DNA of 64,000 nucleotides from an uncultured Azospirillum sp. (GCA_902489795.1 CABUBU010000002.1:13207-77206); one strand, 5' to 3'; numbered from the stretch's first letter, positions 6,403-25,050 are shown. Program-made: numbers and translations. Notes: generated from the sequence alone by a model not told the origin.

Positions 6403-6416
6403 ATGCCGGTGTAAGG

Positions 6417-6448: not shown

Positions 6449-6468
6449 CGTTGGCAGAATTTTTCCGG

Positions 6469-9038: not shown

Positions 9039-12000
9039 ATGAGTAATCAGGTATTGTTGGGGCAGGCGCTGCGGTCGATTGTCCTGAAAGGTTCAAAGGA
9101 AACCGAAGAGCGTTATGAGCGGGAGTTGGCCGCGGCGGAAGCCGACCGCAAAAAGGCCGAAGCCGAATTTAGGGCTGCCGGTGCCGTCCGCATCAAGGAG
9201 ATAAAACAGCGGATCGGAGAGCTTTCGGCAGAGATCAGACAGGCTGCGCCGCAACAAAAGAGAACGCTCGGCGAAGAAATCAAAAAGCTGAATGCGGAGA
9301 TTGAGAGCCTGAAAACGCCGCCGGCCAACCGTTTTGCTTATCTTGACAGCGAAATCAAGGCCTATGCCGGCAGTCAGCTGCTGTTTAAACCGCTGCTTTC
9401 GCCGCAGACGCTGGCAAAATACGGCGTTGCCTTTTCTTTTAACGAGCAGGGGCGGCTGGTGCTTGATGCCGACGAGTTGCGCGAGAGCCCCCTCGGCGAC
9501 AAAATCCGCTCCGGCGCCGATTATATTTTCGAACGCACCCGCGATCTTGGCGAAAAAATTACCCGTGCCGCCGACGTCAACAACATTGTGCTGATGGATG
9601 CCAAAAGACTGTTGTCGAGGGAACCGGAAGAAATAGATTTTGAACTGATTGAGGAATGTCATAACGCGTTCAATGCGGAAAAGGCCGAGCGGGAAAAGAA
9701 AAGCAAGGAGCTTGCCCGCCGCCGTGAGGAAAGCCGCACCGGCATCAGGGTGATAAAAGAGTATCCCGACGGCTATTCGATGGTCGAAATGCTGCCGAGT
9801 CCGGTTTATGACGAAAACGGAAAACTGCTTCATCATGTTTCGCTGAAATACGAATCCGACGAGATGGGGCACTGCGTCGGCCGCGGGGGATATAATGACC
9901 GTATCGGCACCGAAGGCTGGCATTTTTATTCGCTGCGCGGCCCGAACGAGGACGGCGTGTTGGTGCCGCACTGCACGATTTCGATAGAAAACGGCCGCCT
10001 GGCGCAAATCAAAGGCAATTCCAACCTGGCGGTCAAAAACCGTTATGTGGCCGACGTGCGCGATTTTGTGCAGTCGCTTGACATGCCGATTCCCAATTCG
10101 GAAAAGGAACGCATCGGTTATGTAAAAGACGTTAACAGGCGGGAAGTCGACCTGTTTGATTTGCAGCCGGGAACGGAACTAGAGAGTCTGAAGCTTGCGG
10201 CCGGCGATTATAAGGGCATCCGGTTGCAAAATGTTGCCCGGGTCGGCTGTCTGAGTTTTGAAGGCAAAGTCGATCTCAGAGATTACCGCGAGGCGGCGGC
10301 AATCGGCCGTATCGATTCCCTGACGCTGGAAACAGCGGAAGACGCGGCTCTTTACGATCGGGTGCCGCTCAATGTTGGCAAACTGCTGATTACCGGCGGC
10401 ATTCTGCCGCGGCATCTGGGACGGGCCGAAACCGTTGTGCTGGGCAAAGACGCAAAAGTGGACTTTTCCCGCGACTGGGAGAACGTCCGCCGGCTGGAAC
10501 TGAACGATGAAACCGTTCTTGACGCCCGGCGGCTGCCGGTGTTTGCCGAAGGGATCAAAGGCGGCATCTGGCATCATGTGGAAAATCTGACAACGTTTGA
10601 ATTGTTGAACAAAATGCTCGGAAGCGAATGGACTGCTGCTCATTGCCGGGTAGAAAACGGCAAGACGATTGTTGATGCCGACCTGGACTTAAGCGGGCGC
10701 GGCCTTGTCCGGCTGCCGCCGGATATGAAAAATACGGTAGTTCTGGGAACGCTTGATTTGTCGGATAATCGGCTGGACGATGTCAGTGCGCCGCTTGCGT
10801 ATCCGGATTGCGAAAGAATGATTTTGCGGAACGGTTTCGGCGTATATAATCCCGATCGTTTTGAAGCGCTGCCGTATTTGGCGGAGGGAATAGACTGCCG
10901 TCCTCGGGACGTATATCTGGAAAACCGCAATTTGGCCGAAGTGCTGGACAAATTTGCTCTGATCGACAGGGCGCGGATTAAAAACGAAAACGGCCGTTTC
11001 ATAATTGACGGCGACCTGGATCTGGATTCGCTGAATACGTTTGACGGTTCCGGTTTCCCCGGCCGTAACATTGAGAACATTGAAGTGACGGGGCGGTTTA
11101 CGGCGTTGTCCGAAATGACAGAATATCCTTCCTGTCGCACGCTTTGCCTGAGAGCTCTGCCGCAGGACGTTACGGTGTCTGATCAAACGGAAAAGGTGGT
11201 GTTTTTGCCGTCCCGCGAACATATAAGCAGGTTGAAAGGCAAAAATCTGAAACGGGTTGTTTTCAATGACTGCTATCTGACCTGCGCGGATTTGCATAAA
11301 TTTGATCCCGGCGTCAGTTATGAAGGAACTTTTTACTTAAAGGACGAGCCGGAAGCGGAAAAACCGGCAATGCAAGATTTCTCCGGCCTGCGGTTTGAAG
11401 GCATGTTAACAATTTCCGGCACCTGCAACATTGAAGGCATCAGTCGTTTGCCCCATTGTAAAAAAGTGAATTTTCACGGACGCGTAACGGAAAAGGAATT
11501 GCTGATGCTGCATCCCGAAACCGAAGAACTGCTCTGTCCCGACACGTTTGATTTGGATATGCTTCCCGCCGGCAGCCGTTTGAAATATATTTCTCTCAAC
11601 AGCAATTTTTATCACCGGAAAAAGGAAGAGTATACGGATTTTCTGCGTCGGGCTTCCGAGCGCGGAATCGTGTGCGGCTACGGCATTGAACCCGACTTAT
11701 CGCAGGATTTGTCCGATTGTCTGATGAAAAAGGTAGAACTACGCTGGGATGAGCAGCATAAGGATATTTCAACTCTGCCGCAGGCAGAAGAACTGCGCAT
11801 ACACAGTCCCGCTTACGGTTTTGACAATCGTTTTTTAAAAGATGCTTCGTCATATTTGAAAGTGTTGGATCTGTCCTATATGCGCGATCCTGTCGATTTT
11901 TCGGCACTGCCGCGGGATGTCGCTTTGCAGGAACTGTCCCTCGGCGACAGTCCGGTGCAAAGCGATATTCTCGAACAGTTGCCGAAATCGCTTGAATCAA

Positions 12001-12803
12001 TCCGGTTTCTGCGTTGTTCGGGCAACCCTGATCTGGAACCGATTAACCGTATGCCGAATTTGCAACGTCTCGACGTTTCCCAGATGATGGTCCCGGCCGA
12101 CGCGCTCGACCGGGTTGACCCCGATCGTCTGGCAGCGCTTGAGGTGAGCGGCGACACCGGTTTGGTCATGCGGGCGGAGGAGATCGTTGCCATCCATCAA
12201 TTGCCGCCGTCAAAGGAGAATGATCAGATCAGGAAAATGCATGAGTGGCTGACGACGGAAAACAAAGAAGTGCCCTATTTTGTCCGGCAGGTTGTTTTTT
12301 ACGGAACGGCCGGAGAGATATTGTCCGGCAAACATCCGCAGGCGGTTACGGCGGAGGAAATTGCCGCCAGGGTCAAAGGCGTGGAAAACTTCATGCTGGA
12401 CAACTGTGCCAAAATCATCATGGCGGAAGAACGCGGCCATAAAACCGGCAGCGAAAAGGCCGGTCGCGCCGTTTTGGGGGAAAACAAAGGGAAAAAGCCC
12501 GGTTTCTACGGTCATGTCACCGGTTATTATACGCATAGTCCCGATATTTCCAAAGCCGGCAAAATCGTCAGGTCGGTTTTGACCCGCAGTATCCGCCATC
12601 ATCCTGATTTTGCCAAAGCAGAAGAAATTGTTGCCGGCCGTCTGTCCGCGCATGCCCGAAATTTGCAGTTGAATTTCAACCGGCAGCTGACGGATCGGGG
12701 ACAAACGCTCAAAGCTTACGTCAATGCCGCACGGTACAACCAAGGCAATGCCGGTTTTAACGCTGCGGTTCGGAAAATGCACGAGTACAAAAGATACGGC
12801 TGA
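9039..12803 (+). CDS. large (1254 aa) PcfJ-like domain + leucine-rich-repeat protein, putative secreted effector/surface protein
   Basis: N-terminal coiled coil. PcfJ-like core as I recall it: EMGHCVGRGGYNDRIGTEGWHFYSLRG...HCTISIENGRLAQIKGNSN. Canonical LRR units (e.g. LDLSGRGLVRLPPDMKNTVVLGTLDLSDNRLDDVS) are followed by a long run of irregular L/I/V-x repeats. No signal peptide. Confidence 0.8.
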   Translation: MSNQVLLGQALRSIVLKGSKETEERYERELAAAEADRKKAEAEFRAAGAVRIKEIKQRIGELSAEIRQAAPQQKRTLGEEIKKLNAEIESLKTPPANRFAYLDSEIKAYAGSQLLFKPLLSPQTLAKYGVAFSFNEQGRLVLDADELRESPLGDKIRSGADYIFERTRDLGEKITRAADVNNIVLMDAKRLLSREPEEIDFELIEECHNAFNAEKAEREKKSKELARRREESRTGIRVIKEYPDGYSMVEMLPSPVYDENGKLLHHVSLKYESDEMGHCVGRGGYNDRIGTEGWHFYSLRGPNEDGVLVPHCTISIENGRLAQIKGNSNLAVKNRYVADVRDFVQSLDMPIPNSEKERIGYVKDVNRREVDLFDLQPGTELESLKLAAGDYKGIRLQNVARVGCLSFEGKVDLRDYREAAAIGRIDSLTLETAEDAALYDRVPLNVGKLLITGGILPRHLGRAETVVLGKDAKVDFSRDWENVRRLELNDETVLDARRLPVFAEGIKGGIWHHVENLTTFELLNKMLGSEWTAAHCRVENGKTIVDADLDLSGRGLVRLPPDMKNTVVLGTLDLSDNRLDDVSAPLAYPDCERMILRNGFGVYNPDRFEALPYLAEGIDCRPRDVYLENRNLAEVLDKFALIDRARIKNENGRFIIDGDLDLDSLNTFDGSGFPGRNIENIEVTGRFTALSEMTEYPSCRTLCLRALPQDVTVSDQTEKVVFLPSREHISRLKGKNLKRVVFNDCYLTCADLHKFDPGVSYEGTFYLKDEPEAEKPAMQDFSGLRFEGMLTISGTCNIEGISRLPHCKKVNFHGRVTEKELLMLHPETEELLCPDTFDLDMLPAGSRLKYISLNSNFYHRKKEEYTDFLRRASERGIVCGYGIEPDLSQDLSDCLMKKVELRWDEQHKDISTLPQAEELRIHSPAYGFDNRFLKDASSYLKVLDLSYMRDPVDFSALPRDVALQELSLGDSPVQSDILEQLPKSLESIRFLRCSGNPDLEPINRMPNLQRLDVSQMMVPADALDRVDPDRLAALEVSGDTGLVMRAEEIVAIHQLPPSKENDQIRKMHEWLTTENKEVPYFVRQVVFYGTAGEILSGKHPQAVTAEEIAARVKGVENFMLDNCAKIIMAEERGHKTGSEKAGRAVLGENKGKKPGFYGHVTGYYTHSPDISKAGKIVRSVLTRSIRHHPDFAKAEEIVAGRLSAHARNLQLNFNRQLTDRGQTLKAYVNAARYNQGNAGFNAAVRKMHEYKRYG

Positions 12804-13277
12804 CCTGCTGCATATGTCTGTAATTTGCCGTTGAGTTTCAACCGGCGGCAGGCACCGGGCAGAACTTGCCGCTCAAGTTTATGCCGCACGATACAGCCAA
12901 AACAATGGCGGTTTTAACACAGCGGTTCGGAAAATGCATGAGTATAAATAGATACGGCTGACCTGCTGCATATGTCTGTAATTTGCCGTTGAGTTTCAAC
13001 CGGCGGCAGGCACCGGGCAGAACTTGCCGCTCAAGTTTATGCCGCACGATACAGCCAAAACAATGGCGGTTTTAACACAGCGGTTCGGAAAATGCATGAG
13101 TATAAATAGATACGGCTGACCTGCTGCATATGTCTGTAATTTGCCGTTGAGTTTCAACCGGCGGCAGGCACCGGGCAGAACTTGCCGCTCAAGTTTATGC
13201 CGCACGATACAGCCAAAACAATGGCGGTTTTAACACAGCGGTTCGAAAAATGCATGAGTATAAAAGATACGGCTGAA
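12640..13277 (+). repeat. tandem array: last ~160 bp of the LRR gene plus three downstream 158/158/156-bp copies
   Basis: TGACCTGCTG recurs at 12801, 12959 and 13117 (period 158), and the array ends at the TGA at 13273-13275. The two identical 69-aa track ORFs (12838..13047 and 12996..13205) show the downstream copies are essentially identical. The in-gene copy is clearly more divergent and carries indels. Confidence 0.9.
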
Positions 13278-13347
13278 TGCCGGCACATGGTTTTGGGATT
13301 TTTTTTCACACAAAAGGCGGAATTAAAATCCCGCCTGCATGACGTCA

Positions 13348-13521
13348 GTTTTTTTATATTTCCTTTTTTCTTGTTTTTTCTTTCCCCTTGCTTCCTTCCT
13401 CTTTTTTCTTTCCGTTCCTCTATCTCTTTCCTCTTTTTTCTCTTCCCTTTGTTCTTGTTTTGCTCCTCTTTCCCTTGTTTTTACCTCTCTTTTTTTCTCT
13501 TCCTTTCTCTCTTTTTCCCCT
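13348..13521 (+). repeat. polypyrimidine (C/T) tract on the + strand
   Basis: About 170 bp made almost entirely of T and C with only scattered purines (tttttatatttccttttttcttgttttttctttcccc...ctctttttcccc). Confidence 0.9.
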
Positions 13522-13884: not shown

Positions 13885-13930
13885 TCCTTCTCCTTCTCCT
13901 TCTCCTTCTCCTTCTCCTTCTCCTTCTCCG
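13885..13930 (+). repeat. hexanucleotide microsatellite (CTCCTT)n, about 7.7 units
   Basis: Six perfect CTCCTT units at 13891-13926, preceded by TTCCTT and followed by the partial unit CTCC. Confidence 0.95.
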
Positions 13931-14176: not shown

Positions 14177-14506
14177 TTAATACCAGTAAAATTTCAGGAA
14201 ATTATGCGCGTAATACCAGCAGCCGCCGACCATGGCAAGGGAAACGGCAAGCAGTCCCGCGCGTTTGGCGAGAGTCGCTTGTTTGAAGAAAAAACTGCGG
14301 TAAAGAAAAGCGAACGCAATTCCGTACGCGATCACGATCGCAAAATAAATCTGTCGGTGTTTTAATATGTTGGCGGGATTGGATATATAATAAGCCGGTC
14401 TGCCGAAAAAGGAATTGAAAATTTCAAAGGCAAAAACCGAGAAAAAGATCAGCCAGCAGAAGGCAAAAATAAAATTTACACTGTTGGAAATGAATTTATT
14501 GTTCAT
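14177..14506 (-). CDS. small multi-pass membrane protein, distant member of the island family
   Basis: 109-aa ORF with 3-4 hydrophobic helices, the motif RQIYFAIV after the first loop, an aromatic C-terminus FLKFYWY, and the same strand and tight spacing as the neighbours. Confidence 0.55.
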   Translation of the reverse strand: MNNKFISNSVNFIFAFCWLIFFSVFAFEIFNSFFGRPAYYISNPANILKHRQIYFAIVIAYGIAFAFLYRSFFFKQATLAKRAGLLAVSLAMVGGCWYYAHNFLKFYWY

Positions 14507-14545
14507 GATAAGCTCCGATATAAAAAGCGTCTTGTCAAAATCCTG

Positions 14546-15010
14546 TCAGCGGATGTGTTCAAGGTAATAATCAAACCAAAACGAAGAGGTTATTTCCCAT
14601 TCCGGATACTGCTCAACGAAATAAACGTCAATATATGCCAGCATGAAAGCCGGGATGAAAAGAAAAACGGACGCGATCAGAATGAAAGTCTTATGCCACA
14701 GGTTGCGCGGGCAGAGGAAGTAATGCCGGTAAAAACGCCAGGCGATCCAAAGATATATAAACAGCAGTGCATAATGGACGGCCATATAAATATAAATGTT
14801 TCGTCCGTATGAGGCCGCACTGCGGAACACGCCGATATAAGCCCCGTCGACTTGTTTGAACAGGTAGCCGAAAAAAAGCAGCCATATGATCAAAAACGCC
14901 GAATTGAGCAGCAAATTATAGACGTTAACCAGCCAGACCGGAAAATGAATATCATCGTCTTCGGTAAAAAATGCGGCAATTTGTTCGTATTTTGTTTTTT
15001 TGTCAGTCAT
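14546..15010 (-). CDS. small multi-pass membrane protein, distant member of the island family
   Basis: 154-aa ORF with a loop ending GRNIYIY, SSFWFD near the C-terminus, and its own promoter at 15045-15073. Confidence 0.6.
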   Translation of the reverse strand: MTDKKTKYEQIAAFFTEDDDIHFPVWLVNVYNLLLNSAFLIIWLLFFGYLFKQVDGAYIGVFRSAASYGRNIYIYMAVHYALLFIYLWIAWRFYRHYFLCPRNLWHKTFILIASVFLFIPAFMLAYIDVYFVEQYPEWEITSSFWFDYYLEHIR

Positions 15011-15020
15011 AACAACCCCA

Positions 15021-15046
15021 CAGTTTGCAACGGTTTATGCAAACTG
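15021..15046. promoter_or_regulatory. perfect 9-bp inverted repeat CAGTTTGCA-N8-TGCAAACTG at the predicted transcription start
   Basis: Arms at 15021-15029 and 15038-15046. It overlaps the -10 by 2 nt and lies 11 nt upstream of the ATG at 15010. Confidence 0.5.
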
Positions 15047-15073
15047 TATAATACAAACGATTTTGTTTGTCAA
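15045..15073 (-). promoter_or_regulatory. sigma70-like promoter of the 154-aa membrane-protein gene
   Basis: Minus strand reads TTGACA (15073-15068), a 17-nt spacer, then TATACA (15050-15045). The upstream context CAACTTTTAATTGACA matches the other island promoters. Confidence 0.55.
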
Positions 15074-15278
15074 TTAAAAGTTGCTGAATTTGTCAATTTT
15101 GCAACCATAGGTTGTAATTCGTCTTAATGCCTTAAAAAAACACAAATTATTATAGACGAATTTTTATAAAAATAAACATTTTTTTATTCTGGTTCGGATA
15201 AAATTTTTCATTTTCCGACATGTTATGAAAAAAGGAAGCGTTTTTGTTTCCTTTTGGCTGCCGATTCGTTCGCAGAAG

Positions 15279-16220
15279 TCATTCTGATGCCCAAAAGGCA
15301 TTGTAACTGCTGTCATTTAAAATCGGCAATTCGTAAATTGCCGCAAACAGCAGGAAGGCGATGACCGCGCACAAAGCCGAGCCGGCAAGAGCAATAATCC
15401 GGGTTTTAATCCGGCTTTCGGCGGCAAACATCATTTGTCCGAATTTATAGAAAAAATAGCTGTAGACCACGGTTAATGCTGCGGCGAATATCGTATAGGC
15501 GTAAATGTTGCCTTGATACGTCTGTCCGAGAATAATTATTACCGTGTACATGCGGTAAAGAAAATAATAGAAAAAGCCCCAGCCACAGACAAAAAGCAGC
15601 TGCGCGATTACGGCGGCCAGTATAATCATCGGCTTTTCGCGGGTGAATTCTTTTGTCGGCAGTCCGTCGCCGTCATCGTTTATTAAACCGGTTTTCCTTT
15701 TTGGGGTATCATCCTGATCTTGGTTTCTGAAAACTACGGTTTGTTTTATGTCCGCGTCTGTTAAATTGTCTGTATAAGCGGCGGGTGGGGAAGAGACGGA
15801 ACGATTTGCCCGACTGTTTAACACGGCGAGCCGCTTCGGCGTTTGCAAAGCTTTGTCCGCCGCTTTCTGGCGGCCGGTCAGACTGGAGCGTCTGCCGTTC
15901 TCTTCGGGCGTATTTTCGCAAACGACGGTTTTGTTTTTTTCCGGAGAGAAGAAGAAAATTTTTTCTTTTCGTTTTGGCTTGCGGGAATGAGGGAAAAACG
16001 TCTGGTGCCGAACGTTTCCTGTCGGACGGTCGCTTTGCCGATTTTCTTTGTCTTGGTTGTTTTTGGCGGAATCATAATCCGCTTTGCCGGCCGGCGGCAT
16101 TTCATCTGAAGACGGGATGATAGTCGTTTTTTCATCTTTGATTGAGAAAGAGCGGGCTTCTTTTTTGGGGGTGCTGGGGTTCGTCGGAAATGTTTTTCCG
16201 ACGGGCATTGGATGTTCCAT
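15279..16220 (-). CDS. island-family membrane domain fused to a ~190-aa low-complexity N-terminal extension
   Basis: 313-aa ORF. The C-terminal ~120 aa (…LLFVCGWGFFYYFLY…GQTYQGNIYAY…YKFGQMMF…NAFWASE) aligns with the 136-141-aa paralogs. The N-terminus is rich in K/P/S/T/N/D. Confidence 0.7.
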   Translation of the reverse strand: MEHPMPVGKTFPTNPSTPKKEARSFSIKDEKTTIIPSSDEMPPAGKADYDSAKNNQDKENRQSDRPTGNVRHQTFFPHSRKPKRKEKIFFFSPEKNKTVVCENTPEENGRRSSLTGRQKAADKALQTPKRLAVLNSRANRSVSSPPAAYTDNLTDADIKQTVVFRNQDQDDTPKRKTGLINDDGDGLPTKEFTREKPMIILAAVIAQLLFVCGWGFFYYFLYRMYTVIIILGQTYQGNIYAYTIFAAALTVVYSYFFYKFGQMMFAAESRIKTRIIALAGSALCAVIAFLLFAAIYELPILNDSSYNAFWASE

Positions 16221-16565
16221 GTTTTTATTTTCCTTGTTGCAACCTTTTAATTAAGCTCCGGAAGATAAAAATCAATGCCTGATTGTTAAATATTTCGCCT
16301 TGCCGCCTTCTGTTTTGAAAAGGGGATACAACTTGCCCGAAGCTGAACCGGACTGTACAAAAAAATCGTTGCCTTCCGCATAGAACGGAAGATTGATTTG
16401 TCCCGACGGAAAAATTGTTCGGCCGCCGGTGCGAAAGCTTTTCCGTCCGTCAAAAGTTAATTATCTTTTGGGTGCGATATGAAAAAATTAATTAATTATC
16501 ACGGAAAAAAACAAAGTTTTTCTGCAACTCCATATTATGTTTAGATAGGAAATCAAACGATTCTG

Positions 16566-16976
16566 TTATTGTGCCCAAAAGGCCGTATACGTTCCTGAAC
16601 GGAAAAAAGGCAAAAGCTGAACGCCGCTATATGCCGGAAACAGCAGAAAAGCGCAAATAAGCGAGCAGAATATTGCCCATACTTTTAATTTTAGGGAAGT
16701 GTGAGAACTAAACAGCATTTTGCCGAATTTATAACAACAATAAGGGTAAACCGCGGTAAGCAGTATGGCGTATAAAGTATCCGCATAAATGTTGCCCTTG
16801 GGGTCGGTTATTCCCGGAATAACAAATGAAAGATATAACCGTAAAAGATACAGAAAGAAAACTCCTCACCCGAGGACAAAGATAATCTGCATTATCAATA
16901 CGGCGGTTGCGGAAAGAGGGTTTTGTTTAAAGTTGCTGATGTATTCTTTGCCATAGGCAGCGATTTTGTTTTTCAT
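16566..16976 (-). pseudogene. island-family paralog disrupted by one in-frame TGA
   Basis: Own translation: MKNKIAAYGKEYISNFKQNPLSATAVLIMQIIFVLG*GVFFLYLL...TAFWAQ. It is 137 codons, the same length as the 17157 paralog. The stop replaces the Trp of the conserved LGWG motif (TGG->TGA). Confidence 0.8.
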
Positions 16977-17009
16977 TTTGTTTATTCTCAATAACGTTTG
17001 GCAAGCGGT

Positions 17010-17024
17010 GTTCTGGTTTTGTTC
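17010..17024 (-). promoter_or_regulatory. LexA (SOS) box, alphaproteobacterial type GTTC-N7-GTTC
   Basis: + strand reads GTTC tggtttt GTTC, 33 nt upstream of the ATG at 16976. Confidence 0.55.
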
Positions 17025-17064
17025 TCTTTCGGGGTAAAAAAAACAATTCCTTAAATCTGTTCAA

Positions 17065-17093
17065 GAGATATAACGAAACTTTACTCCCGTCAA
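17065..17093 (-). promoter_or_regulatory. sigma70-like promoter of module copy 3
   Basis: Minus strand reads TTGACG (17093-17088), a 17-nt spacer, then TATCTC (17070-17065). Confidence 0.45.
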
Positions 17094-17156
17094 TCAAAAG
17101 TTGAAGCTTCTGTTTCGTTGTAACATATTTACTAGATTGAAAGCATTATAAATTTG

Positions 17157-17567
17157 TCAATCGGCCCAGAAAGCAACGCTGGTTTGCGGTAAAAAGAAAA
17201 CGGCTTCATTCAGCAGCAGCTGCAAAGGATATGCCAATATGGCACATAAAAGCGAAAGGGCTAAAATTATTACCTTTGGTTTAAGAGTATTGTTATTAAG
17301 AAAAAGAGTCCTAAAAGATTTGTAGATAAAAAACGAAAAGATAAAAGCGATGACTGTCAGCGAAAACGTTTCCGGATATATAGCGGTTTTGGTATATGTT
17401 CTGCCGGGAATGATATATCTTATGTATCTTTCACACAAGAAAGTATAAAAAGTTCCCCATCCGAGGATAAAGATAATCTGTATTATCAGTACGGCGGTTG
17501 CGGAAAGAGGGTTTTGTTTAAAGTTGTTAATATATTCTTTGCCGTAGGCGGCGATTTTGTTTTTCAT
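17157..17567 (-). CDS. island-family small membrane protein (136 aa from MKNK start)
   Basis: Track ORF 17157..17588. The start was moved to the MKNKIAAYG Met shared with the pseudogene copy, which lacks the upstream ATG. Motifs: LGWGTFY, PGRTYTKTAIY, YKSFRTLF, VAFWAD. Three to four predicted TM helices. Confidence 0.75.
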   Translation of the reverse strand: MKNKIAAYGKEYINNFKQNPLSATAVLIIQIIFILGWGTFYTFLCERYIRYIIPGRTYTKTAIYPETFSLTVIAFIFSFFIYKSFRTLFLNNNTLKPKVIILALSLLCAILAYPLQLLLNEAVFFLPQTSVAFWAD

Positions 17568-17600
17568 TTTATTTACTTTCAATGACATTTTGTGAAGTAT

Positions 17601-17615
17601 GTTCCTATTTTGTTC
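17601..17615 (-). promoter_or_regulatory. LexA (SOS) box GTTC-N7-GTTC
   Basis: + strand reads GTTC ctatttt GTTC, 33 nt upstream of ATG 17567 (12 nt upstream of the alternative ATG 17588). Confidence 0.55.
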
Positions 17616-17655
17616 TGTTTTGAGGCAAAAAAAACAATTTCTTAAACCTGTTCAA

Positions 17656-17684
17656 AAGATATAGTACAATTTTATTTCTGTCAA
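17656..17684 (-). promoter_or_regulatory. sigma70-like promoter of module copy 2
   Basis: Minus strand reads TTGACA (17684-17679), a 17-nt spacer, then TATCTT (17661-17656). Confidence 0.5.
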
Positions 17685-17741
17685 TCAAAGGTTGATTGCT
17701 TGTATTGCTTCGGTGTTTAAGGTTCAGAAGATAATGTTTGT

Positions 17742-18125
17742 TCAGACGAACAAGATCCCTAATGCCGAATAAAGTAATTCTGACAAAAAAGACCAAAAAA
17801 CAAGGCAGCAAAGCGAGTTTATTAACGCGGCCGTTTTTTCGGTAAAGGAACTGTTATTGCCAAACATAACTTTTGCCATTTTATAAGCAACATAAGTGTA
17901 GATTATAAAGATACCGCTTTCAGCAATAACCTTAATGTAAAAGTTTGTTTTGTCGGGAAAGTCTCCAAAGATATAATCGCTGAATTCTTTATAAAGAGTA
18001 TAATAATATACTCCCCATTCCGATAGGAAAAGAAAATAAAACATAAGGATAGCCAACAATCTGCCTGGGTGTTTACGGAAATTTGAAAAAGGCGTTTTTG
18101 TTGCAGGTAAAGTCTTTTGTGTCAT
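17742..18125 (-). CDS. island-family small membrane protein (127 aa)
   Basis: Motifs LSEWGVYYYTLY, DKTNFY, YKMAKVMF. The start overlaps the stop of the upstream paralog by 4 nt (ATGA), which suggests translational coupling. Confidence 0.7.
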   Translation of the reverse strand: MTQKTLPATKTPFSNFRKHPGRLLAILMFYFLFLSEWGVYYYTLYKEFSDYIFGDFPDKTNFYIKVIAESGIFIIYTYVAYKMAKVMFGNNSSFTEKTAALINSLCCLVFWSFLSELLYSALGILFV

Positions 18126-18547
18126 TTGTTCTCTCCGTCTTGTACAGCCCAGAAAGCGGTAGGTACGTTATCGCTGAAGCGGGGTATAAAACGCGCAATG
18201 CTGAACTCTCCCGAAATCAAAGCAAAAACGGCAGAAATGAGAACAGCATAAATTTTTAGACGGAAACCTTTGTTGATGGCAAACATATTCGGGAACAATC
18301 GGCAAAATATATAAGTATATACAAGAGTTTGAATTATAATGTCCGCGCATTCGACATAAATATTGCTTTTAGGTCCCGATTGCCCGGGAATAACAATTGT
18401 AATAATGTTGCCCAAAATATAGTAAAAATATACTCCCCATCCGAGGACAAAGATAATCTGCATTATCAGTACGGCGGTTGCGGAAAGAGGGTTTTGTTTA
18501 AAGTTGTTAATATATTCTTTGCCGTAGGCGGCGATTTTGTTTTTCAT
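18122..18547 (-). CDS. island-family small membrane protein (141 aa from MKNK start), first gene downstream of the toxin
   Basis: Track ORF 18122..18568. Motifs: LGWGVYFYY, PGQSGPKSNIY, TAFWAV. The first 36 residues from MKNK differ from the 17157 paralog at only 2 positions; the rest is divergent. Confidence 0.75.
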   Translation of the reverse strand: MKNKIAAYGKEYINNFKQNPLSATAVLIMQIIFVLGWGVYFYYILGNIITIVIPGQSGPKSNIYVECADIIIQTLVYTYIFCRLFPNMFAINKGFRLKIYAVLISAVFALISGEFSIARFIPRFSDNVPTAFWAVQDGENK

Positions 18548-18580
18548 TTTATTTACTTTCAATGACATTTTGTGAAGTAT

Positions 18581-18595
18581 GTTCCTATTTTGTTC
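18581..18595 (-). promoter_or_regulatory. LexA (SOS) box GTTC-N7-GTTC
   Basis: + strand reads GTTC ctatttt GTTC, 33 nt upstream of ATG 18547. Confidence 0.55.
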
Positions 18596-18635
18596 TGTTT
18601 TGAGGCAAAAAAAACAATTTCTTAAACCTGTTCAA

Positions 18636-18664
18636 AAGATATAGTGCAATTTTATTTCTGTCAA
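18636..18664 (-). promoter_or_regulatory. sigma70-like promoter of module copy 1
   Basis: Minus strand reads TTGACA (18664-18659), a 17-nt spacer, then TATCTT (18641-18636). Confidence 0.5.
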
Positions 18665-18738
18665 TCAAAAGTTGAAGAAAAAATGTTTTAGATAAAAATT
18701 TAATTGAAAAAATAATATGTACAATAATTGGTCGGCAT

Positions 18739-19473
18739 TTATTTTCTTCGTTTGTTCCAATCGTCATATTTATAGTTCACATAGATATCCATCGGATATT
18801 CGCTGGCGCGGATGAATTTTGCCACTTCATCCATACTGTCGGTTGTATCAATACAGCCGGCAGATCCGGGAACTTCGCCGCCGTGGAGATAAAAACCTTT
18901 GCGGTGCTTGGTGTCGGTGCGAAAATCGTCCGGTTCAAGCCTGATCCGATAATTCCCCCATGAGCGTGTTCCGCCCTGCCAGGGTGTTTCTCCGTTGGGG
19001 CCTCGCCAGCTGCGGCTTTCCTTTTCCGGCGAATAGGTCTGCAGTTCGTCCGGATTTAAGTGCCAAACGCCCTCGGGGATGGGACCGTGATTTTCAATTT
19101 CTGTTGCCGCACGGCTTTGATATCCGGGTTTCCCGGACATGGCGGGCCAGGATTTTAACGTTTTTTCATTATTAATTGCTGTCAGGGTTTGCCCGTCAAA
19201 TTCCATTTCCGGAATGTCTTCGGAACCAAAAGCGGGCCAAAAAGAAACCGGTTTGCCGTTCCGATACAGGGTAAAGGTTGAGCCGTCGCTTTTCAGCTCT
19301 ACGCGTGGTTTGGGCGTTTTCAATTCCATGTCGTCGTTGTAATCGGCAAGCTGCTGTTCGAGAAGTTCGCGCGTGGTCATTTCCTTTTTTGGCCGCGGCG
19401 TCATCTGGCTGCCTAATCCGTACATGTTCAACAGAGCCGTACGGATGTCGTCATCTTCTTCGTATCTACTCAT
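18739..19473 (-). CDS. DUF2778 / Tlde1-family L,D-transpeptidase-fold toxin-domain protein
   Basis: 244-aa ORF with no signal peptide and an acidic N-terminus. The C-terminal half carries the family hallmarks as I recall them: SWPAMSGKPGYQ...NHGPIPEGVWHL, and HRKGFYLHGGEVPGSAGCIDT (a His-x10-Cys pair in a YkuD-like arrangement). Confidence 0.8.
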   Translation of the reverse strand: MSRYEEDDDIRTALLNMYGLGSQMTPRPKKEMTTRELLEQQLADYNDDMELKTPKPRVELKSDGSTFTLYRNGKPVSFWPAFGSEDIPEMEFDGQTLTAINNEKTLKSWPAMSGKPGYQSRAATEIENHGPIPEGVWHLNPDELQTYSPEKESRSWRGPNGETPWQGGTRSWGNYRIRLEPDDFRTDTKHRKGFYLHGGEVPGSAGCIDTTDSMDEVAKFIRASEYPMDIYVNYKYDDWNKRRK

Positions 19474-19494
19474 TTCATATTCCTTTGCAAATTG

Positions 19495-19521
19495 AAAAAA
19501 AGCGCCGGAAAGTTCCGGCGC
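19495..19521 (-). terminator. intrinsic terminator 21 nt upstream of the toxin start codon
   Basis: Stem GCGCCGG (19502-19508) / CCGGCGC (19515-19521). On the minus strand it is followed by TTTTTTT and then caatttgcaaaggaatatgaaATG. Confidence 0.65.
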
Positions 19522-19590
19522 GGGTTAAATAAAAAACTCCCGGCGCGATGTTGATGAGCGATGTAGCGAAGAAAGGAGCCACGCCGGAAG

Positions 19591-19617
19591 AAAAGCGCCC
19601 TTCAAATCCGCAGGGCG
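19591..19617 (-). terminator. terminator-like hairpin (weak U tract)
   Basis: Stem CGCCCT (19596-19601) / AGGGCG (19612-19617). On the minus strand it is followed by CTTTTCTT. Confidence 0.35.
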
Positions 19618-19627
19618 GAAAAAGGGC

Positions 19628-19654
19628 ACAAAAAAAGGCGGGAAAAACCGCCTT
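19628..19654 (-). terminator. intrinsic terminator downstream of the 157-aa membrane-protein gene
   Basis: Stem AAGGCGG (19635-19641) / CCGCCTT (19648-19654). On the minus strand it is followed by TTTTTTGTG. Confidence 0.65.
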
Positions 19655-19813
19655 GTCATAAATACGGCCTACCAACCGCATTATGGAAATAATCTATAAC
19701 ATAAACAGACGAAAAAATCAATAAAAACTCGCAACGGTTGTGGATAACTGTCCGCGTCAAATAAAACGGCAGTTTGCCGGCCGGGAGTTTCCGCGGGAGA
19801 ATGGGCGGATTTG

Positions 19814-20287
19814 TCAGCCGCGGGTGCGGACGAAACGAACGATGTCTGCGTCGGCCCAGGGGGTAAATTCAACTGCGGCAAGGTCGGGAAGAAGGGAGGA
19901 AAAACCTTCTTCAAGAAGCGGCAGCAGCCATGAAATCAGCAGAGCGATACCGGCTGAGCACAACAAAATCAGCGTTTTTTTGCCGAGTCCCACTTTTTCG
20001 ACGAACATGCCGCGAAAAAAATACATAAAAGGCGGCACCGACAGTGCCAGGGTTACGGCAATTTCGAACATAACCATATAAACGCCGGAGCAGGGAACTT
20101 CCGGCAAAGAAAAGTCGCAATAGCAGCCTTTGGCAAGCACCGTGATCAGGACATGTCCGAGTTCGGTGAAAAAGAACCACCAGCCGGCGGCAAAAACGAA
20201 ATCAAGGGCGCGGCCGACCGGCTTTCCGGCGGCGTTTTCGCGCGGCGCCCGGTAAGAATAGGAAGGGGTAAAGCGTTTGTCCATCAT
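19814..20287 (-). CDS. island-family small membrane protein (157 aa), upstream of the toxin
   Basis: Motifs AAGWWFFF, SGVYMVMF, YFFRGMF, EFTPWAD. Three to four hydrophobic helices. GC is higher than in the downstream paralogs. Confidence 0.7.
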   Translation of the reverse strand: MMDKRFTPSYSYRAPRENAAGKPVGRALDFVFAAGWWFFFTELGHVLITVLAKGCYCDFSLPEVPCSGVYMVMFEIAVTLALSVPPFMYFFRGMFVEKVGLGKKTLILLCSAGIALLISWLLPLLEEGFSSLLPDLAAVEFTPWADADIVRFVRTRG

Positions 20288-20463
20288 GTTTTTCTTTCAA
20301 AACGGGATTCGGTGCCTGCCACTATAAAACAAAACGACGGGATATACAATACCTTGTACAGGCAAACCCGGAGCCGGCAAAAAACTGCCGTCAGCCTGTT
20401 TGTTTCCCTTGTATTTTTGCCAAATTGTTTTATTTTCATGTTAATGATACGTAGGAGGAGTAA

Positions 20464-21129
20464 ATGGACAAACTGGATGCCGGCAGACTGAAGGCGGCGG
20501 TGTTCGACTGGGACGGCACTTTGGCGGAAACCCGCACCCCCCGGCTGTGGGCCGTTAATCGGATTATGGCAAAATACGGGCTGCCGGACTGGGAGAACAC
20601 CCGCGAAAAGCAGAACAAACTGTTGTCTTTCATGGATAATTTTCCGCTGGTGTTCGGCAGCCGGGCGGAAGAGGCTTACCGTGAATATGCCGAACTTTAC
20701 AAAGCCAACGTGGCGAGGATGATCAAAACTTTTCCCGGCGTGCGCGAAACGCTTGCTTTTCTCCGGCAAAAAGGAGTGAAAATCGCGATCATGACCAACA
20801 AAGACCGCCGGCTGCTGGAATTTGAACTGCCGCTTTTGTTTGACGTTTCGCTTTTCGACCGTATTGTCTGCGGCCATGAGGCGGCGCATGACAAACCCTG
20901 CGGCGATCATGCCCGCTTCGCCCTGAAGGGATTGATTGCGGAAAGCGATATTGCGCCGCAAAGCGTGTGGGTCGTCGGCGACAGCGTGCTCGACAACATG
21001 TGCGCCGAAGCCGTCGGCGCGCTGCCGGTACGGATTGTCGGCGGTTGTCCGGAAGTTGACAGGATCGATTGTCCGGACGTGATTTATTTTAACGATTTTG
21101 AACAATTTTACCGGTCGCTGGCCGGTTGA
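20464..21129 (+). CDS. HAD-superfamily hydrolase (phosphoglycolate phosphatase-like)
   Basis: 221-aa ORF with HAD motif I VFDWDGTLAET, motif II MTNK, and motif IV VGDSVLD. AGGAGGAG RBS upstream. Confidence 0.85.
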   Translation: MDKLDAGRLKAAVFDWDGTLAETRTPRLWAVNRIMAKYGLPDWENTREKQNKLLSFMDNFPLVFGSRAEEAYREYAELYKANVARMIKTFPGVRETLAFLRQKGVKIAIMTNKDRRLLEFELPLLFDVSLFDRIVCGHEAAHDKPCGDHARFALKGLIAESDIAPQSVWVVGDSVLDNMCAEAVGALPVRIVGGCPEVDRIDCPDVIYFNDFEQFYRSLAG

Positions 21130-21148
21130 CTGCCCGGAGACTGTCCGC

Positions 21149-22696
21149 ATGAAACAAAAAAACGATGGCGAAAAACCGCATTATTTGCGTCTGGCGCTGA
21201 CAGGCGTTGGCATTTTGCTGCTGCTGGCGCTCAATTATTTTTATTTTCGCGAAAAGACTTCTTCCAACAGCGAGTTGATCACCCGTTATACCCGAAAGGC
21301 CGATCCGATGGAAAAATACCGCAATCCCGCGGTGGCCGGGCTGTTTTACGCCGCTGCTCCGCAAACGCTTGACCGTGAAGTTTCCGGCTATTTGCAGGCG
21401 GCCGGCGGTGCTTACGAAAAAATGCCGAAGATGCTGATCGTGCCGCATGCCGGCTATCAATATTCGGCGCCGGCGGCGGCTCGTGCTTATCGTCCGCTGG
21501 CGGAGTTGACCGGGCGGATTAAAACCGTTATCCTGCTCGGGCCGTCGCACCGGGTATCGGTTGACGGACTGGCTTTGTCTTCGGCCGACTGGTTTGTCAC
21601 GCCGCTCGGAAAAGTGCCGGTTGACCGGGAAATGGCGGCCGGGCTGGCGGCGCATAAAGGTTTTAGGATAAATGATGCGGCGCATCGGGACGAGCATTCG
21701 CTGGAGGTGCAGCTGCCGTTTTTGCAAAAGGTGCTGACGGATTTTGAAATCGTGCCGATTGTTTACGGCGCGATGAATCCGCAGGAAACGGCCGAGGCGC
21801 TGCTGCCGTATTTGCAAAGGGACGATACGCTGTTGGTGGTTTCCGCGGATTTGTCGCATTATTATTCTTACGAGGAGGCGCAGGCGGCAGACCGGGAAAC
21901 GGCCGCCAGAATCGAAGAAGTTTCGCCTGAAATCGGCTATCATCAGTCCTGCGGCGCCGGCGGCATCAACAGCGCACTGATTTTGGCGCAGATGATGCGT
22001 CTGCGTCCGGAAATTCTGTCGCTGATCAATTCCGGCGACACTGCCGGCAGCCGGGAAAGGGTGGTCGGTTACGGCGCCTGGGCCTTTGCCGGAGCCGGCG
22101 GCCTTGAGCGCGAGACCGCCGCGCTTGCGGATTATGCCGCTGTTTATAAAAAGGATTTGCTGCGGATTGTCCGCACCGCGCTGGAAGAGGCGGTGCTGCA
22201 CGGCCGGGTTTTCGAGCCTTCCCGCGACGATTATCCGGATCCGTTGTTTGACAAAGGGGCATCGTTCGTTACTCTGGAAAAAAACGGTGAGCTGCGGGGG
22301 TGCATCGGTTCGTTGCTGCCGCGTCGGGCGACGGCGCTGGACGTTGCCGAAAACGCCGGCAATGCCGCCCTGAAAGACGGCCGCTTTGCGCCGGTTGCTG
22401 CCGACGAACTGGGGGAGATCAGCCTTTCCGTTTCGCTTTTGACCGGTTTTGAAGCGATCGATTACGAAAACGAGGAAGATTTGCTGACCAGGGTGCGGGC
22501 CGGCGTCGACGGTCTGGTGATCCGCGACGGCAGCCGCCAGGGACTGTTCCTGCCTTCGGTCTGGAAGCAGCTGCCGGACAAAAGGGAATTTTTGAACAAT
22601 TTGAAGCTGAAGGCCGGGATGAGCCCAAGCTATTGGTCGAATGCGATCAAAGTTTACCGTTTCAGAACCGTGGAGATAAAAGAAAATGAAAATTAA
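21149..22696 (+). CDS. fusion of a MEMO1-like (AmmeMemoRadiSam system protein B) domain and an AMMECR1 (protein A) domain, with an N-terminal TM anchor
   Basis: Track ORF trimmed to MKQKNDGEK... at 21149. TM segment LALTGVGILLLLALNYF. Memo-like region PHAGYQYSAPAAA...HSLEVQLPFL...SADLSHY. AMMECR1-like region GASFVTLEKNGELRGCIGS...GLFLPSVW. Confidence 0.8.
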   Translation: MKQKNDGEKPHYLRLALTGVGILLLLALNYFYFREKTSSNSELITRYTRKADPMEKYRNPAVAGLFYAAAPQTLDREVSGYLQAAGGAYEKMPKMLIVPHAGYQYSAPAAARAYRPLAELTGRIKTVILLGPSHRVSVDGLALSSADWFVTPLGKVPVDREMAAGLAAHKGFRINDAAHRDEHSLEVQLPFLQKVLTDFEIVPIVYGAMNPQETAEALLPYLQRDDTLLVVSADLSHYYSYEEAQAADRETAARIEEVSPEIGYHQSCGAGGINSALILAQMMRLRPEILSLINSGDTAGSRERVVGYGAWAFAGAGGLERETAALADYAAVYKKDLLRIVRTALEEAVLHGRVFEPSRDDYPDPLFDKGASFVTLEKNGELRGCIGSLLPRRATALDVAENAGNAALKDGRFAPVAADELGEISLSVSLLTGFEAIDYENEEDLLTRVRAGVDGLVIRDGSRQGLFLPSVWKQLPDKREFLNNLKLKAGMSPSYWSNAIKVYRFRTVEIKENEN

Positions 22697-24404
22697 CGGA
22701 TACGATATCAATTACAACGAAGCCGAACTGAAAGACAAAATGGAAAACCAGACGCTTGACGTCCGGCTGATTTCGCCGGATTTCGAGGGATATAAAAATT
22801 TGAGCGAGGGCAACAAAAAAGCTCTTGCGCATCTGGTTGCCGCCGCCCGTATGGTCAATGACGTGGCGCTGGAACAGGACCATCCCATGAACCTGCCGCA
22901 GAAAAAGGCGCTGGCAGAAACGGCGGCTGCCGGCAGTTCGCACGCGGCGCTGGCACTTGAACTGTTCAATTCCCTGAACGGCGTGGCTGGTTACAATGGT
23001 GTGGATAAAGAGCCCGTAGAAGTTTTCACCGGCATTCATCTGCTGCCCGGACACAACTTTTATCCTGCCGATCTGAGCCCGGAAGAGTTTCGGCAAATTC
23101 TGATTGCCATGCTGAAGGCCGGCAAAAGCGAAGAAGTGCGGAAAATACTGAGTGCCCGCACGATGGTTCGGCGTGACGGCGGCGAATTAAAGGCGATTGA
23201 CTATACGGAATATTTTGCCGCCGCTTTTTCGGCAATTGCCAATGAGCTGGAAGTGGCCGCCCATTATGCCGACGACGAAGCGTTTAAAGATTATCTCGGC
23301 TGGCAGGCGCAGGCGCTTTTGCAAAACAATCCCGATATGGACATGCTGGCCGACAGACATTGGGCGGTTTTGCAGGACACGCCGCTGGAGTTTACCTTAA
23401 GCCGCGAAAATTATGACGACGAGATCACGCCGGCCGTCTACGATAACGGAGAGTTGAAGGCCCTGCTGGCGGAAAACGGCATTGAAGCGGTTGGCAAAGA
23501 CACTTTGGGCGCCCGCGTCGGCATTGTTAACAAGGTGGGAACGGATTTGATTCTGCAATTTAAAAAACACCTGCCCGAGCTGGCGGCCAAAATGCCGTTT
23601 GCCGACGCTTATCGCCAGAGCGTCCTCGACGGCGAAGAGCTGAAACAAACGATGGTCGACGTCGACCTGGTCGATCTGGAAGGCGATTATGCCCAGTGCC
23701 GCGGCGGCATTACCACCGCCCAGAACCTGCCCAACAACGACAAGCTGTCGGTCAAGATCGGCGGCGGCCGGCGCAACGTCTATCACCGTCAGGTGCGGAT
23801 GAGCGTTGACAGGGAAAAAGAGCGCAAAATGCTGGAGCGTCTGCTGGATCCGGCACTGCACCGCTATTTTGACAACGAGGCCGACCATTTGTTTGTCATC
23901 GGACACGAAAACGGGCATTCGCTCGGTCCCGACAGTTCGTACCAGAACGCTCTCGGCGCTTACAAGCACATCATTGAAGAACATAAGGCGGACACCGTTT
24001 CGCTGGCTTTTATGCCGGAATATGTCAATGCCGGCGTGATCGACGAAGAAACTCTGAAAAAAATTTACGTCAGTTACATCGCCGGCCGGATGTTTCTGGC
24101 CGCCCGGCCGCATATGATGCTGCCCCACCGCATGGGTGAGCTGATCCAGTTCAATTATCTCTGCGAATACAGCATCATCAGGGAAACGGCGGACGGCAAA
24201 ATAACGATTGATCTGGATAATGTCGGCGGCGTTTTAAACCGGCTGCTGGAGGAAACGGTTCGGGTGCAGTTGTCCAAATCAAAGGAAAACGCCGCCGCTT
24301 TTGTTGAAAAATATGCCGTCTGGTCGCCGCTGTCGGAGAAAATCGCGGCGGTGCGGCAGGAACTGGGGATAAAACCCTATAAACGGATCGTCCGTTGTTT
24401 TTAA
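22686..24404 (+). CDS. zinc metallopeptidase related to dipeptidyl-peptidase III (M49-like)
   Basis: 572-aa ORF with a zinc motif HENGH (in IGHENGHSLGP) followed by the second acidic motif EEHKAD, an arrangement reminiscent of M49 HExxGH...EExR(A/K)(E/D). Confidence 0.65.
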   Translation: MKINGYDINYNEAELKDKMENQTLDVRLISPDFEGYKNLSEGNKKALAHLVAAARMVNDVALEQDHPMNLPQKKALAETAAAGSSHAALALELFNSLNGVAGYNGVDKEPVEVFTGIHLLPGHNFYPADLSPEEFRQILIAMLKAGKSEEVRKILSARTMVRRDGGELKAIDYTEYFAAAFSAIANELEVAAHYADDEAFKDYLGWQAQALLQNNPDMDMLADRHWAVLQDTPLEFTLSRENYDDEITPAVYDNGELKALLAENGIEAVGKDTLGARVGIVNKVGTDLILQFKKHLPELAAKMPFADAYRQSVLDGEELKQTMVDVDLVDLEGDYAQCRGGITTAQNLPNNDKLSVKIGGGRRNVYHRQVRMSVDREKERKMLERLLDPALHRYFDNEADHLFVIGHENGHSLGPDSSYQNALGAYKHIIEEHKADTVSLAFMPEYVNAGVIDEETLKKIYVSYIAGRMFLAARPHMMLPHRMGELIQFNYLCEYSIIRETADGKITIDLDNVGGVLNRLLEETVRVQLSKSKENAAAFVEKYAVWSPLSEKIAAVRQELGIKPYKRIVRCF

Positions 24405-24491
24405 GTGCGGTAAAACTGTTAAAAATCGCTTGCACAAACGAGAGCTTTGCCTCATTATAAACGGCATCGGACAAGAAAAGGGACAAAGTCT

Positions 24492-24860: not shown

Positions 24861-24872
24861 AGGAAAAAACGA

Positions 24873-25031: not shown

Positions 25032-25050
25032 TTTTTGACAAGGAGAGCAA

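Follow-up and report, generated by a model that had tools for sequence, protein, structure and literature searches.

We consider here a locus of an uncultured alphaproteobacterium, Azospirillum sp., that lies in a 64,000-nucleotide stretch of DNA (GCA_902489795.1 CABUBU010000002.1:13207-77206); we refer to the whole stretch as the window, and all coordinates are its own unless another source is named. Between positions 14,177 and 20,287 the window carries, on the minus strand, one gene for a candidate toxin related to the Tlde1 effectors and eight genes for small membrane proteins, of which one lies upstream of the toxin gene and seven, including a pseudogene, lie downstream. All nine open reading frames (ORFs) are found where a sequence-only reading of the window had placed them, and that reading had also recognized the one-plus-seven arrangement and the pseudogene. 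A contig of "MAG: Azospirillum sp. 51_20" (MAG, metagenome-assembled genome) matches the window at 99% identity, the matching metagenome contigs with a stated source are from human gut or human faeces, and the exact toxin sequence is present in 73 blocks of a public assembly collection.

The toxin gene and its membrane-protein neighbours

The toxin ORF (18739-19473, minus strand) encodes 244 amino acids, and its residues 90-236 (18766..19206, minus strand) comprise a Tlde1/YkuD-fold domain, as seen with Pfam, a profile of its clade and an AlphaFold2 (AF2) model. Over residues ~95-222 the protein matches the Pfam family YkuD (PF03734) with 31.5 bits, against a cut-off of 23.4, and Tlde1_dom (PF10908) with 27.2 bits, just below the gathering score of 30.1; in precomputed database annotation, its close homologs carry both domains. 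The clade profile, which is built from 12 members, matches Tlde1a (7UMA/7UO8) with an E-value of 3.6e-10 and covers the whole domain. In the resulting alignment His197 (18883-18885, minus strand) and Cys207 (18853-18855, minus strand) fall upon H121 and C131, the catalytic residues of Tlde1a. Both are invariant or nearly so in 29 homologs, Arg191 is conserved as well, and the spacing is His-x9-Cys, the same as in Tlde1a. When the AF2 model (predicted local distance difference test score 79, residues 1-26 disordered) is compared with the PDB by Foldseek, the top three matches are all Tlde1a entries (E 1.5e-7 to 3.2e-7, TM-scores 0.61-0.63), and these are followed by the L,D-transpeptidases LdtMt1, YkuD and YcbB. 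By profile and model, the ORF encodes a Tlde1/YkuD-fold protein with an intact His/Cys active site and a predicted enzymatic activity. The sequence-only reading had proposed this Tlde1/DUF2778 L,D-transpeptidase fold, which the clade profile and the Foldseek ranking bear out; of its "His-x10-Cys" pair, the correspondence with the catalytic residues stands, and the spacing has to be corrected to x9. The active site also shows a substitution: the toxin has SAGC where Tlde1a has SHGC. That is, Ala205, which is invariant in the clade alignment, takes the place of His129, a residue of Tlde1a reported to be important for the positioning of D-Ala4 (PMC9638812).

The part of the toxin that precedes this domain has a different character. 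Its N-terminal ~55 residues (19309..19473, minus strand) form a species-conserved segment that is acidic and partly helical, with residues 1-26 acidic and predicted to be disordered, and that contains neither a signal peptide nor a Pfam domain. A hydropathy scan finds no hydrophobic stretch at the N-terminus, in agreement with the earlier claim that the toxin lacks a signal peptide, and neither Pfam nor NCBIfam finds a domain in residues 1-90, nor is any known trafficking domain present there. A search of 1.84 billion representative proteins with the N-terminal 90 residues gives 12 matches at E ≤ 0.001, none of which points to a secretion system. Eight of them are strong, and these are short proteins (56-112 aa) that are fragments of the same toxins; the remaining four are weak repeat matches to residues 45-88 within longer proteins. 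We detect the N-terminal domain only in this lineage, and we presume that its ~55 residues are a trafficking module.

All eight neighbouring genes encode polytopic membrane proteins. The hydropathy scan finds two or three separate hydrophobic segments in each, and the AF2 model of p148, the gene product encoded directly downstream of the toxin, consists of an amphipathic N-terminal helix and three transmembrane (TM) helices. On the minus strand, p148 (18122..18568) is followed by p127 (17742..18125), by p143 (17157..17588), which has its own copy of a 242-nt repeat discussed below, by the pseudogene m2 (16566..16976), and by p313 (15279..16220), whose C-terminal 128 residues are the three-TM module and whose remainder is an N-terminal extension of 185 amino acids. 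These five central members are clear paralogs, with E-values from 1e-12 to 1e-46. The other three are distant members of the family: up157 (19814..20287, minus strand), a three-TM protein of 157 amino acids encoded upstream of the toxin; p154 (14546..15010, minus strand), also a three-TM protein; and its partner p109 (14177..14506, minus strand), the last member of the array, after which there is a terminator-like hairpin at 14134-14106. These three match the family weakly (profile E ~1e-4) and join it once orthologs from related species are added.

An alignment of the family shows invariant or nearly invariant motifs, namely F..GW in TM1, NIY before TM2, F after TM2, S in TM3 and a C-terminal FW; the sequence-only reading had rightly noticed both that motifs are shared and that the two distal members match only loosely. 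The distribution of Lys and Arg suggests an N-in/C-out topology. None of the eight proteins has a significant match in Pfam, NCBIfam, PHROGs or PADLOC, and no paralog contains a DUF2195 domain with a Sec signal peptide. A Foldseek search of the p148 model against the PDB gives no match below E = 1, and we have discarded its weak resemblance to DgkA and MAPEG (E 4-8). The family has only 34 clusters among 5.8 billion proteins and is detected only in this lineage, and in a census of its neighbourhoods, an idea of the earlier reading, every context examined is this toxin locus.

Some of the membrane genes have individual features. The stop codon of p148 overlaps the start codon of p127 (ATGA, 18122-18125), which implies that the two genes are translationally coupled; they may act as a pair. 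The first 185 residues of p313 (15663-16220, minus strand), a basic, low-complexity region rich in Pro, Ser, Thr and Lys, occur on this one paralog only and are predicted to be cytoplasmic; every strain of the species has the full-length protein of 313 amino acids together with this extension. In m2 a TGG codon has become TGA at 16866-16868, exactly at the Trp of the GWG motif. We considered whether this TGA might be recoded as Trp and rejected the idea, since TGA is the stop codon of six of the seven membrane genes that are intact, and other strains do not have the stop in m2.

Variation among strains and species

We compared 18 contigs of the species, which are related by descent (L-numbers in what follows are labels of compared loci or contigs). 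The species has at least four toxin alleles: T1, which is that of the window, and T2a, T2b and T2c. Within the species, identity over the first 50 residues is 92-100%. Most of what distinguishes the T2 alleles from one another lies in a hypervariable insert that separates the PEG motif from the WGNYR motif. The N-terminal segment is kept within the species regardless of the toxin allele attached to it, and the same separation is seen between species; that is, the N-terminal module follows the species and the C-terminal types cross species boundaries, with 76% identity between T1 and the T4 toxin of another MAG and 68% between T2c and T3.

The degree of this divergence bears on one rival explanation of the locus, according to which the enzyme is a housekeeping peptidoglycan L,D-transpeptidase with membrane regulators and takes no part in antagonism. 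A YkuD match above the Pfam cut-off is what one would expect of such an enzyme. However, T1 is only ~56% identical to T2a, T2b and T2c over the whole protein (47% by BLAST), against 94-98% for the flanking genes; the closest structure is that of an effector, Tlde1a, and not of the cellular L,D-transpeptidases; the protein has neither a signal peptide nor a membrane anchor; and the toxin family is very rare, with 39 clusters. We find a housekeeping role scarcely credible.

The N-terminal module is not confined to Tlde1-type toxins. In the related species represented by L096 (positions 4946-6911 of that locus) it is found also on a different C-terminal domain, in a protein of 169 amino acids, and this domain is recognized neither by the Tlde1 profile nor by BLAST against the window toxin. 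Its gene is followed by one for an unrelated membrane protein of 141 amino acids, by an orphan C-terminal fragment of 64 amino acids, and by a second 141-aa gene. The 169-aa protein is a second, putative toxin type on the same module.

The membrane-protein genes vary within a constant frame, which consists of up157, the toxin, a set of variable genes, p313, p154 and p109. The paralogs between the toxin and p313 differ in number and order from strain to strain. All T1 strains have p148, p127 and p143, and p148 usually stands directly after the toxin. In all three T2b array configurations a p143-type gene stands directly after the toxin, and one of these configurations is without p148 and p127. 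The T2a strains have an intact m2 of 143 amino acids directly after the toxin and are without p148, p127 and p143. The m2 pseudogene of the window is 91% identical to this intact gene, its ortholog, and m2 has been disrupted in two independent ways, by the nonsense change of the window type and by truncation at residue 99 (L102, L103); disrupted copies are found only in strains without T2a. L102 and L103 themselves have the same array and different toxins. This distribution suggests T1 with p148 (and p127), T2b with p143, and T2a with m2 as candidate pairs, the other copies being orphan immunity genes. The m2 of the window would then be a putative, decaying orphan immunity gene.

A likely substrate for such changes in gene order and number is the 242-nt direct repeat, copies of which flank the variable paralogs. 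The copy at 18434..18675 (minus strand) contains a promoter-like element, TTGACA-17-TATCTT, together with ~45 codons from the start of p148; its identity is 98% to a second copy at 17454-17695 and 83% to a third at 16863-17104. The paralogs are correspondingly mosaic: among p148, p143 and m2, identity is at least 90% in residues 1-47 and drops to 23-34% beyond, and their conserved 5' part belongs to the repeat. Short-read contigs break inside it.

Relatives in other phyla, the leader and the genomic setting

In order to see the toxin domain in a wider context, we examined 80 loci, one genome per species, which were found by means of the pattern [VI]PGSAGCID. Rhs/SpvB/TcdB giants and DUF6443-RHS, DUF4280 (PAAR-like) and Phage_base_V (VgrG-like) proteins all carry the same domain at their C-terminus, as do MuF-domain proteins of Alphaproteobacteria from gut and rumen. 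We counted a toxin as having a partner if it is followed within 130 nt, on the same strand, by an ORF of 80-200 amino acids with at least two predicted TM helices. Outside the window's lineage this holds for 51 of 73 toxin ORFs (70%), and 39 of the 73 (53%) have a partner with at least three TM helices, whereas among the control ORFs of these loci the count is 11 of 701 (1.6%). Many of these loci contain two to four small multi-TM ORFs, and orphan toxin C-terminal fragments, each followed by a three-TM ORF, occur in L018, L019, L024, L034 and L075. A multi-TM partner is thus a general rule for this sub-clade, in architecture and not in homology; 49 partner proteins from the other loci have no Pfam match.

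We also considered whether the MuF-Tlde1 fusions are prophage genes and found no support for this: most of the neighbours scanned are either housekeeping genes or without a Pfam hit (they include RRF, a MiaB-like protein, PBP5 and one T2SSE-family ATPase), and there are no phage genes among them. Related Tlde1-like domains do occur in phages, on 30 IMG/VR viral contigs (L127-L156), most of which have no small multi-TM gene directly downstream, and this difference suggests that the domain has a different role there.

These observations are relevant to a second hypothesis of the sequence-only reading, that the locus is a holin-like and cell-wall-enzyme cassette for lysis or release, acting on the producer's own membrane and wall. 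The membrane proteins are of the size of holins and have three TM helices, the enzyme is without a signal peptide, and Tlde1-like domains are present on viral contigs too, all of which would be in keeping with it. But the domain on viral contigs usually lacks a multi-TM partner, and its fusion to Rhs, VgrG, PAAR-like and MuF carriers points to a module of warfare. There is no significant holin match in Pfam or PHROGs either, the best being E 0.0025 for one of 56 proteins; there are no phage genes around the locus, where the neighbours are housekeeping genes; and eight paralogs and an extreme polymorphism of the enzyme within one species are not what a lysis cassette would predict. We find no support for this hypothesis and regard a lysis cassette as very unlikely.

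Upstream of the toxin gene, between it and up157, lies a conserved 5' leader (19474..19720, minus strand). In the direction of transcription it begins with a promoter-like element and a hairpin. Next come the first of two terminator-like hairpins (19654-19635), a third stem, and the other terminator-like hairpin (19521-19502), which ends 20 nt before the ribosome-binding site AAAGGAA and the ATG. The promoter-like element, TTGATT-17-TATAGA, was read by eye and is not returned by a promoter scan. The layout is kept in four sequences from related species (L010, L098, L100, L009), compensatory changes are seen in four stems across the five sequences, and a shorter version precedes both toxins of L096. 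A comparison with Rfam gives no match; the leader may be an attenuator or a small RNA. From these elements we infer that transcription of the toxin requires read-through of two terminators, and that each immunity cassette can rely on its own promoter-like site.

The island as a whole has a low GC content (0.34-0.43, compared with ~0.53 in the rest of the window) and is flanked in every case by a HAD-hydrolase gene on one side and by SerRS on the other. Related species have their own versions of it at the same syntenic site. Among the window ORFs that we checked, which are housekeeping genes, we saw no secretion-system genes. In particular, neither these ORFs nor the toxin N-terminus show a link to type VI secretion (T6SS) in the form of Hcp, VgrG, PAAR or a marker domain, which agrees with the earlier statement that the window has no T6SS genes.

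A low-GC, variable island whose tandem terminator-like hairpins imply tight transcriptional gating might also be an anti-phage or abortive-infection system, in which membrane sensors would release a latent cytoplasmic wall enzyme upon infection and the hypervariable island would be a hotspot of defence. No component has a PADLOC match, though; the architecture and the N-terminal fusions of the relatives are those of secreted toxins, and the pattern of alleles and orphan genes fits immunity between bacteria. An anti-phage role is, in our judgement, highly improbable.

A few further observations concern the surroundings. In Azospirillum sp. 51_20, a gene of 1254 amino acids is located between the array and SerRS. 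The 1254-aa ORF of the window (9039-12803, plus strand) has no Pfam domain above threshold and only weak matches resembling leucine-rich repeats; in L096, which is another species, the equivalent place downstream of SerRS is taken by a 1255-aa gene. This ORF adjoins the island, and there is no evident link between the two. Positions 12724-13276 hold a 158-nt tandem repeat (3.5 copies, 96% matching) that duplicates the last ~80 nt of the ORF plus its downstream sequence. Between these repeats and the last gene of the array lie a CT-rich low-complexity stretch with an imperfect 32-nt period (13340-13520) and a perfect (TCCTTC)x7.5 microsatellite (13885-13929). Finally, the 8.7-kb GenBank record MT836786.1 (L104), obtained from human faecal samples and labelled "UNVERIFIED: Bacteriophage sp.", corresponds at 96% identity to the chromosomal region 17413-26161 of the window. 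We therefore reject its identification as a phage: it is bacterial DNA under a phage label.

A probable polymorphic toxin island with predicted transmembrane immunity

Taken with the comparisons above, the gene content of the locus makes it probable, in our view, that this is a chromosomal polymorphic island of a Tlde1-type toxin with transmembrane immunity proteins and orphan immunity genes, in which toxicity and protection are predictions. The sequence-only reading had offered an effector with a polymorphic or orphan immunity array as the first of its two hypotheses, and the comparative genomics, through the alleles, the variation of the array and the census of partners, supports it well.

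A mechanism of the following kind would account for the arrangement. The toxin would be delivered into the periplasm of competing cells, where it would act on the stem peptides of peptidoglycan by L,D-carboxypeptidase activity, by D-amino-acid exchange, or by both, as shown for Tlde1a. The three-TM proteins, with their predicted N-in/C-out topology, would confer immunity: with the TM1-TM2 loop and the C-terminal tail they would neutralize toxin that arrives from outside, on the periplasmic side of the inner membrane. Protection against the cell's own allele would come from one or two paralogs, for which p148 with p127 are the candidates, and the others would be orphan immunity genes against the alleles of sister strains: p143 against T2b, and the now-dead m2 formerly against T2a. 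Recombination between the 242-nt repeats, each of which includes the conserved 5' end of a paralog as well as a promoter-like site, would reshuffle the array. Expression of the toxin would be gated by the leader with its two terminator-like hairpins, while the immunity cassettes would be transcribed from their own promoter-like sites.

Several points weigh against this interpretation. The first concerns the enzyme, whose exact chemistry may differ from that of Tlde1a, given the replacement of His129 by Ala205. The second concerns delivery, which is assumed, because the window toxin is linked neither to a secretion apparatus nor to a trafficking domain of a known kind. Third, the proposed pairs are not without exceptions, as T1 is sometimes directly followed by p143 and not by p148 (L102, L109, L110); moreover, since the strain contigs share descent, the counts of co-occurrence are small and not independent. 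Fourth, the census, by virtue of the single pattern with which its loci were retrieved, samples one sub-clade, and iterative hidden Markov model searches seeded with the window family at no point drew in the three-TM partners of other phyla, so that no homology with them is detectable.

A fifth point concerns the three outer members of the array. In three related species the orthologs of up157, a gene present in every strain examined, are 71%, 51% and 44% identical to it, while identity between T1 and the toxins of these species is 76%, 45% and 34%. Across species p154 is conserved at 67-71% and p109 at 55-75%, compared in the same species with 68-75% for the HAD gene and 65-80% for Memo/AMMECR1 (the contig of the T4 species ends 650 nt past its p109 ortholog). 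Since their identities stay near those of housekeeping neighbours while the toxins drop to 34-45%, up157, p154 and p109 do not co-vary with the toxin, and such conservation, as read from these identities, is not as predicted by allele-specific immunity. The eight-gene array of the sequence-only reading is thus a homologous family, as proposed, and not a uniform array: its five central paralogs vary between strains and its three outer members are conserved as orthologs are. The latter could be ancestral or generic immunity genes, or they could have an accessory or export function.

The export function deserves to be considered separately. Here up157, p154 and p109 would be a holin-like export machinery, resembling the type X secretion system (T10SS), that recognizes the N-terminal module and carries the signal-less enzyme through the inner membrane, and the central paralogs alone would provide immunity. 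It would explain why these three genes frame the toxin in every strain and are conserved whichever allele is present, and it would supply a route for a toxin that has neither a signal peptide nor a known trafficking domain and that has no other secretion genes nearby, as far as the window ORFs were checked. Yet by sequence the three are of one family with the variable paralogs, and they show no holin signature. In L096, furthermore, there is no up157-like gene, and the p154-like and p109-like genes occur as three pairs, of which the p154-like member is mosaic and diversified in a manner that looks like that of immunity genes. An export machinery of this kind we therefore hold to be unlikely. 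It is equally doubtful that the ~55-residue N-terminal module and up157, p154 and p109 constitute a self-contained and previously unrecognized route for the export or release of polymorphic toxins, with the leader as a dedicated riboregulatory switch; such a route would serve gut Alphaproteobacteria in which T6SS genes have not so far been seen in linkage with this locus.

Returning to the island as one of toxin and immunity genes, we may ask how it relates to known systems. The nearest characterized one is Tlde1a/Tldi1a (Tae5/Tai5), of the SPI-6 (Salmonella pathogenicity island 6) T6SS of Salmonella Typhimurium. Its toxin has the same fold, the same His-x9-Cys spacing and the same Arg before the His as the window toxin, and it too is small, signal-less and active in the target periplasm (10.1101/2020.02.18.954545; PMC9638812; PDB 7UMA). 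The differences lie in the N-terminal part, where the window toxin has ~90 additional residues, in the SAGC motif, in the partner, and in delivery: Tldi1a is a soluble DUF2195 protein with a Sec signal that is encoded upstream, whereas the partners here are three-TM proteins without a Pfam match; and Tlde1a is T6SS cargo, whereas no T6SS gene is found among the ORFs checked in the 64-kb window.

The sequence-only reading had stated that the pairing of this fold with polytopic membrane proteins maps to no system known to it, and this claim of novelty goes too far. The DUF2778 superfamily has been divided into Tae5, Tae6 and Tae7, and transmembrane putative immunity proteins (Tai7), predicted only, have been reported for the Tae7 family (Sibinelli-Sousa et al. 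2020, 10.1101/2020.02.18.954545). Its statement that Tlde1 immunity proteins are soluble and periplasmic is accurate for the characterized Tldi1a (Tai5) and the predicted Tai6, to which soluble periplasmic immunity is restricted, and fails for the predicted transmembrane Tai7 (10.1101/2020.02.18.954545). The same study reports Rhs fusions of DUF2778 and suggests its recruitment into polymorphic toxin cassettes. Similarly, Tox-LD-peptidase is listed among the polymorphic toxin domains, where it is linked to Imm16 and Imm57 and to type II secretion (T2SS), T6SS and TcdB/TcaC trafficking, not to MuF or to Alphaproteobacteria; Imm16 and Imm57 are described as alpha+beta and mostly alpha, and TM helices go unmentioned (Zhang et al. 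2012, PMC3482391). Because Tae7/Tai7 and Tox-LD-peptidase are already in the literature, the pairing of this fold with membrane immunity is not new in principle.

By its description, Tae7/Tai7 is a close likeness: it too combines a DUF2778 toxin with a neighbouring gene whose product has one or more TM helices, there are Rhs fusions among its members, and our census meets the same pairing of toxin and TM protein across phyla. That description is without a multi-copy recombining array, a lineage-specific N-terminal module or alphaproteobacterial MuF fusions. Compared with the two papers (10.1101/2020.02.18.954545 and PMC3482391), what is new here is a recombining array of one three-TM family at a fixed chromosomal site, and also the lineage-specific N-terminal module, the MuF fusions in Alphaproteobacteria, the flanking genes that do not co-vary with the toxin, and the structured leader.

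In its overall organization the locus resembles the polymorphic toxins of the Rhs, contact-dependent inhibition (CDI) and MuF classes, which likewise have a conserved N-terminus, exchangeable C-termini, downstream immunity genes, orphan modules and repeats that favour recombination; its N-terminal module matches none of the known trafficking domains. There is a further parallel in the acquired interbacterial defence islands of gut Bacteroidales, in which, as reportedly described by Ross et al. in 2019, arrays of orphan immunity genes with a repeated intergenic sequence act against the toxins of other strains. Those arrays are said to be mobile, associated with recombinases, and composed of mixed, unrelated immunity families; the island of the window, in contrast, has a single paralogous family, at a fixed chromosomal site, beside its own toxin.

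The locus raises the questions of how a polytopic membrane protein could neutralize a soluble periplasmic enzyme, by which route the toxin is delivered, and what the structured leader does. For the family, it turns a passing point of the literature into a general one: a single clade of Tlde1-type toxins, spread over many phyla, is mostly paired with a small multi-TM protein. For the organism, an abundant and uncultured alphaproteobacterium of the human gut, it provides a concrete case of the diversification of toxin and immunity genes at the level of strains, in which candidate cognate pairs, T1 with p148/p127, T2b with p143 and T2a with m2, can be read directly from metagenomes.

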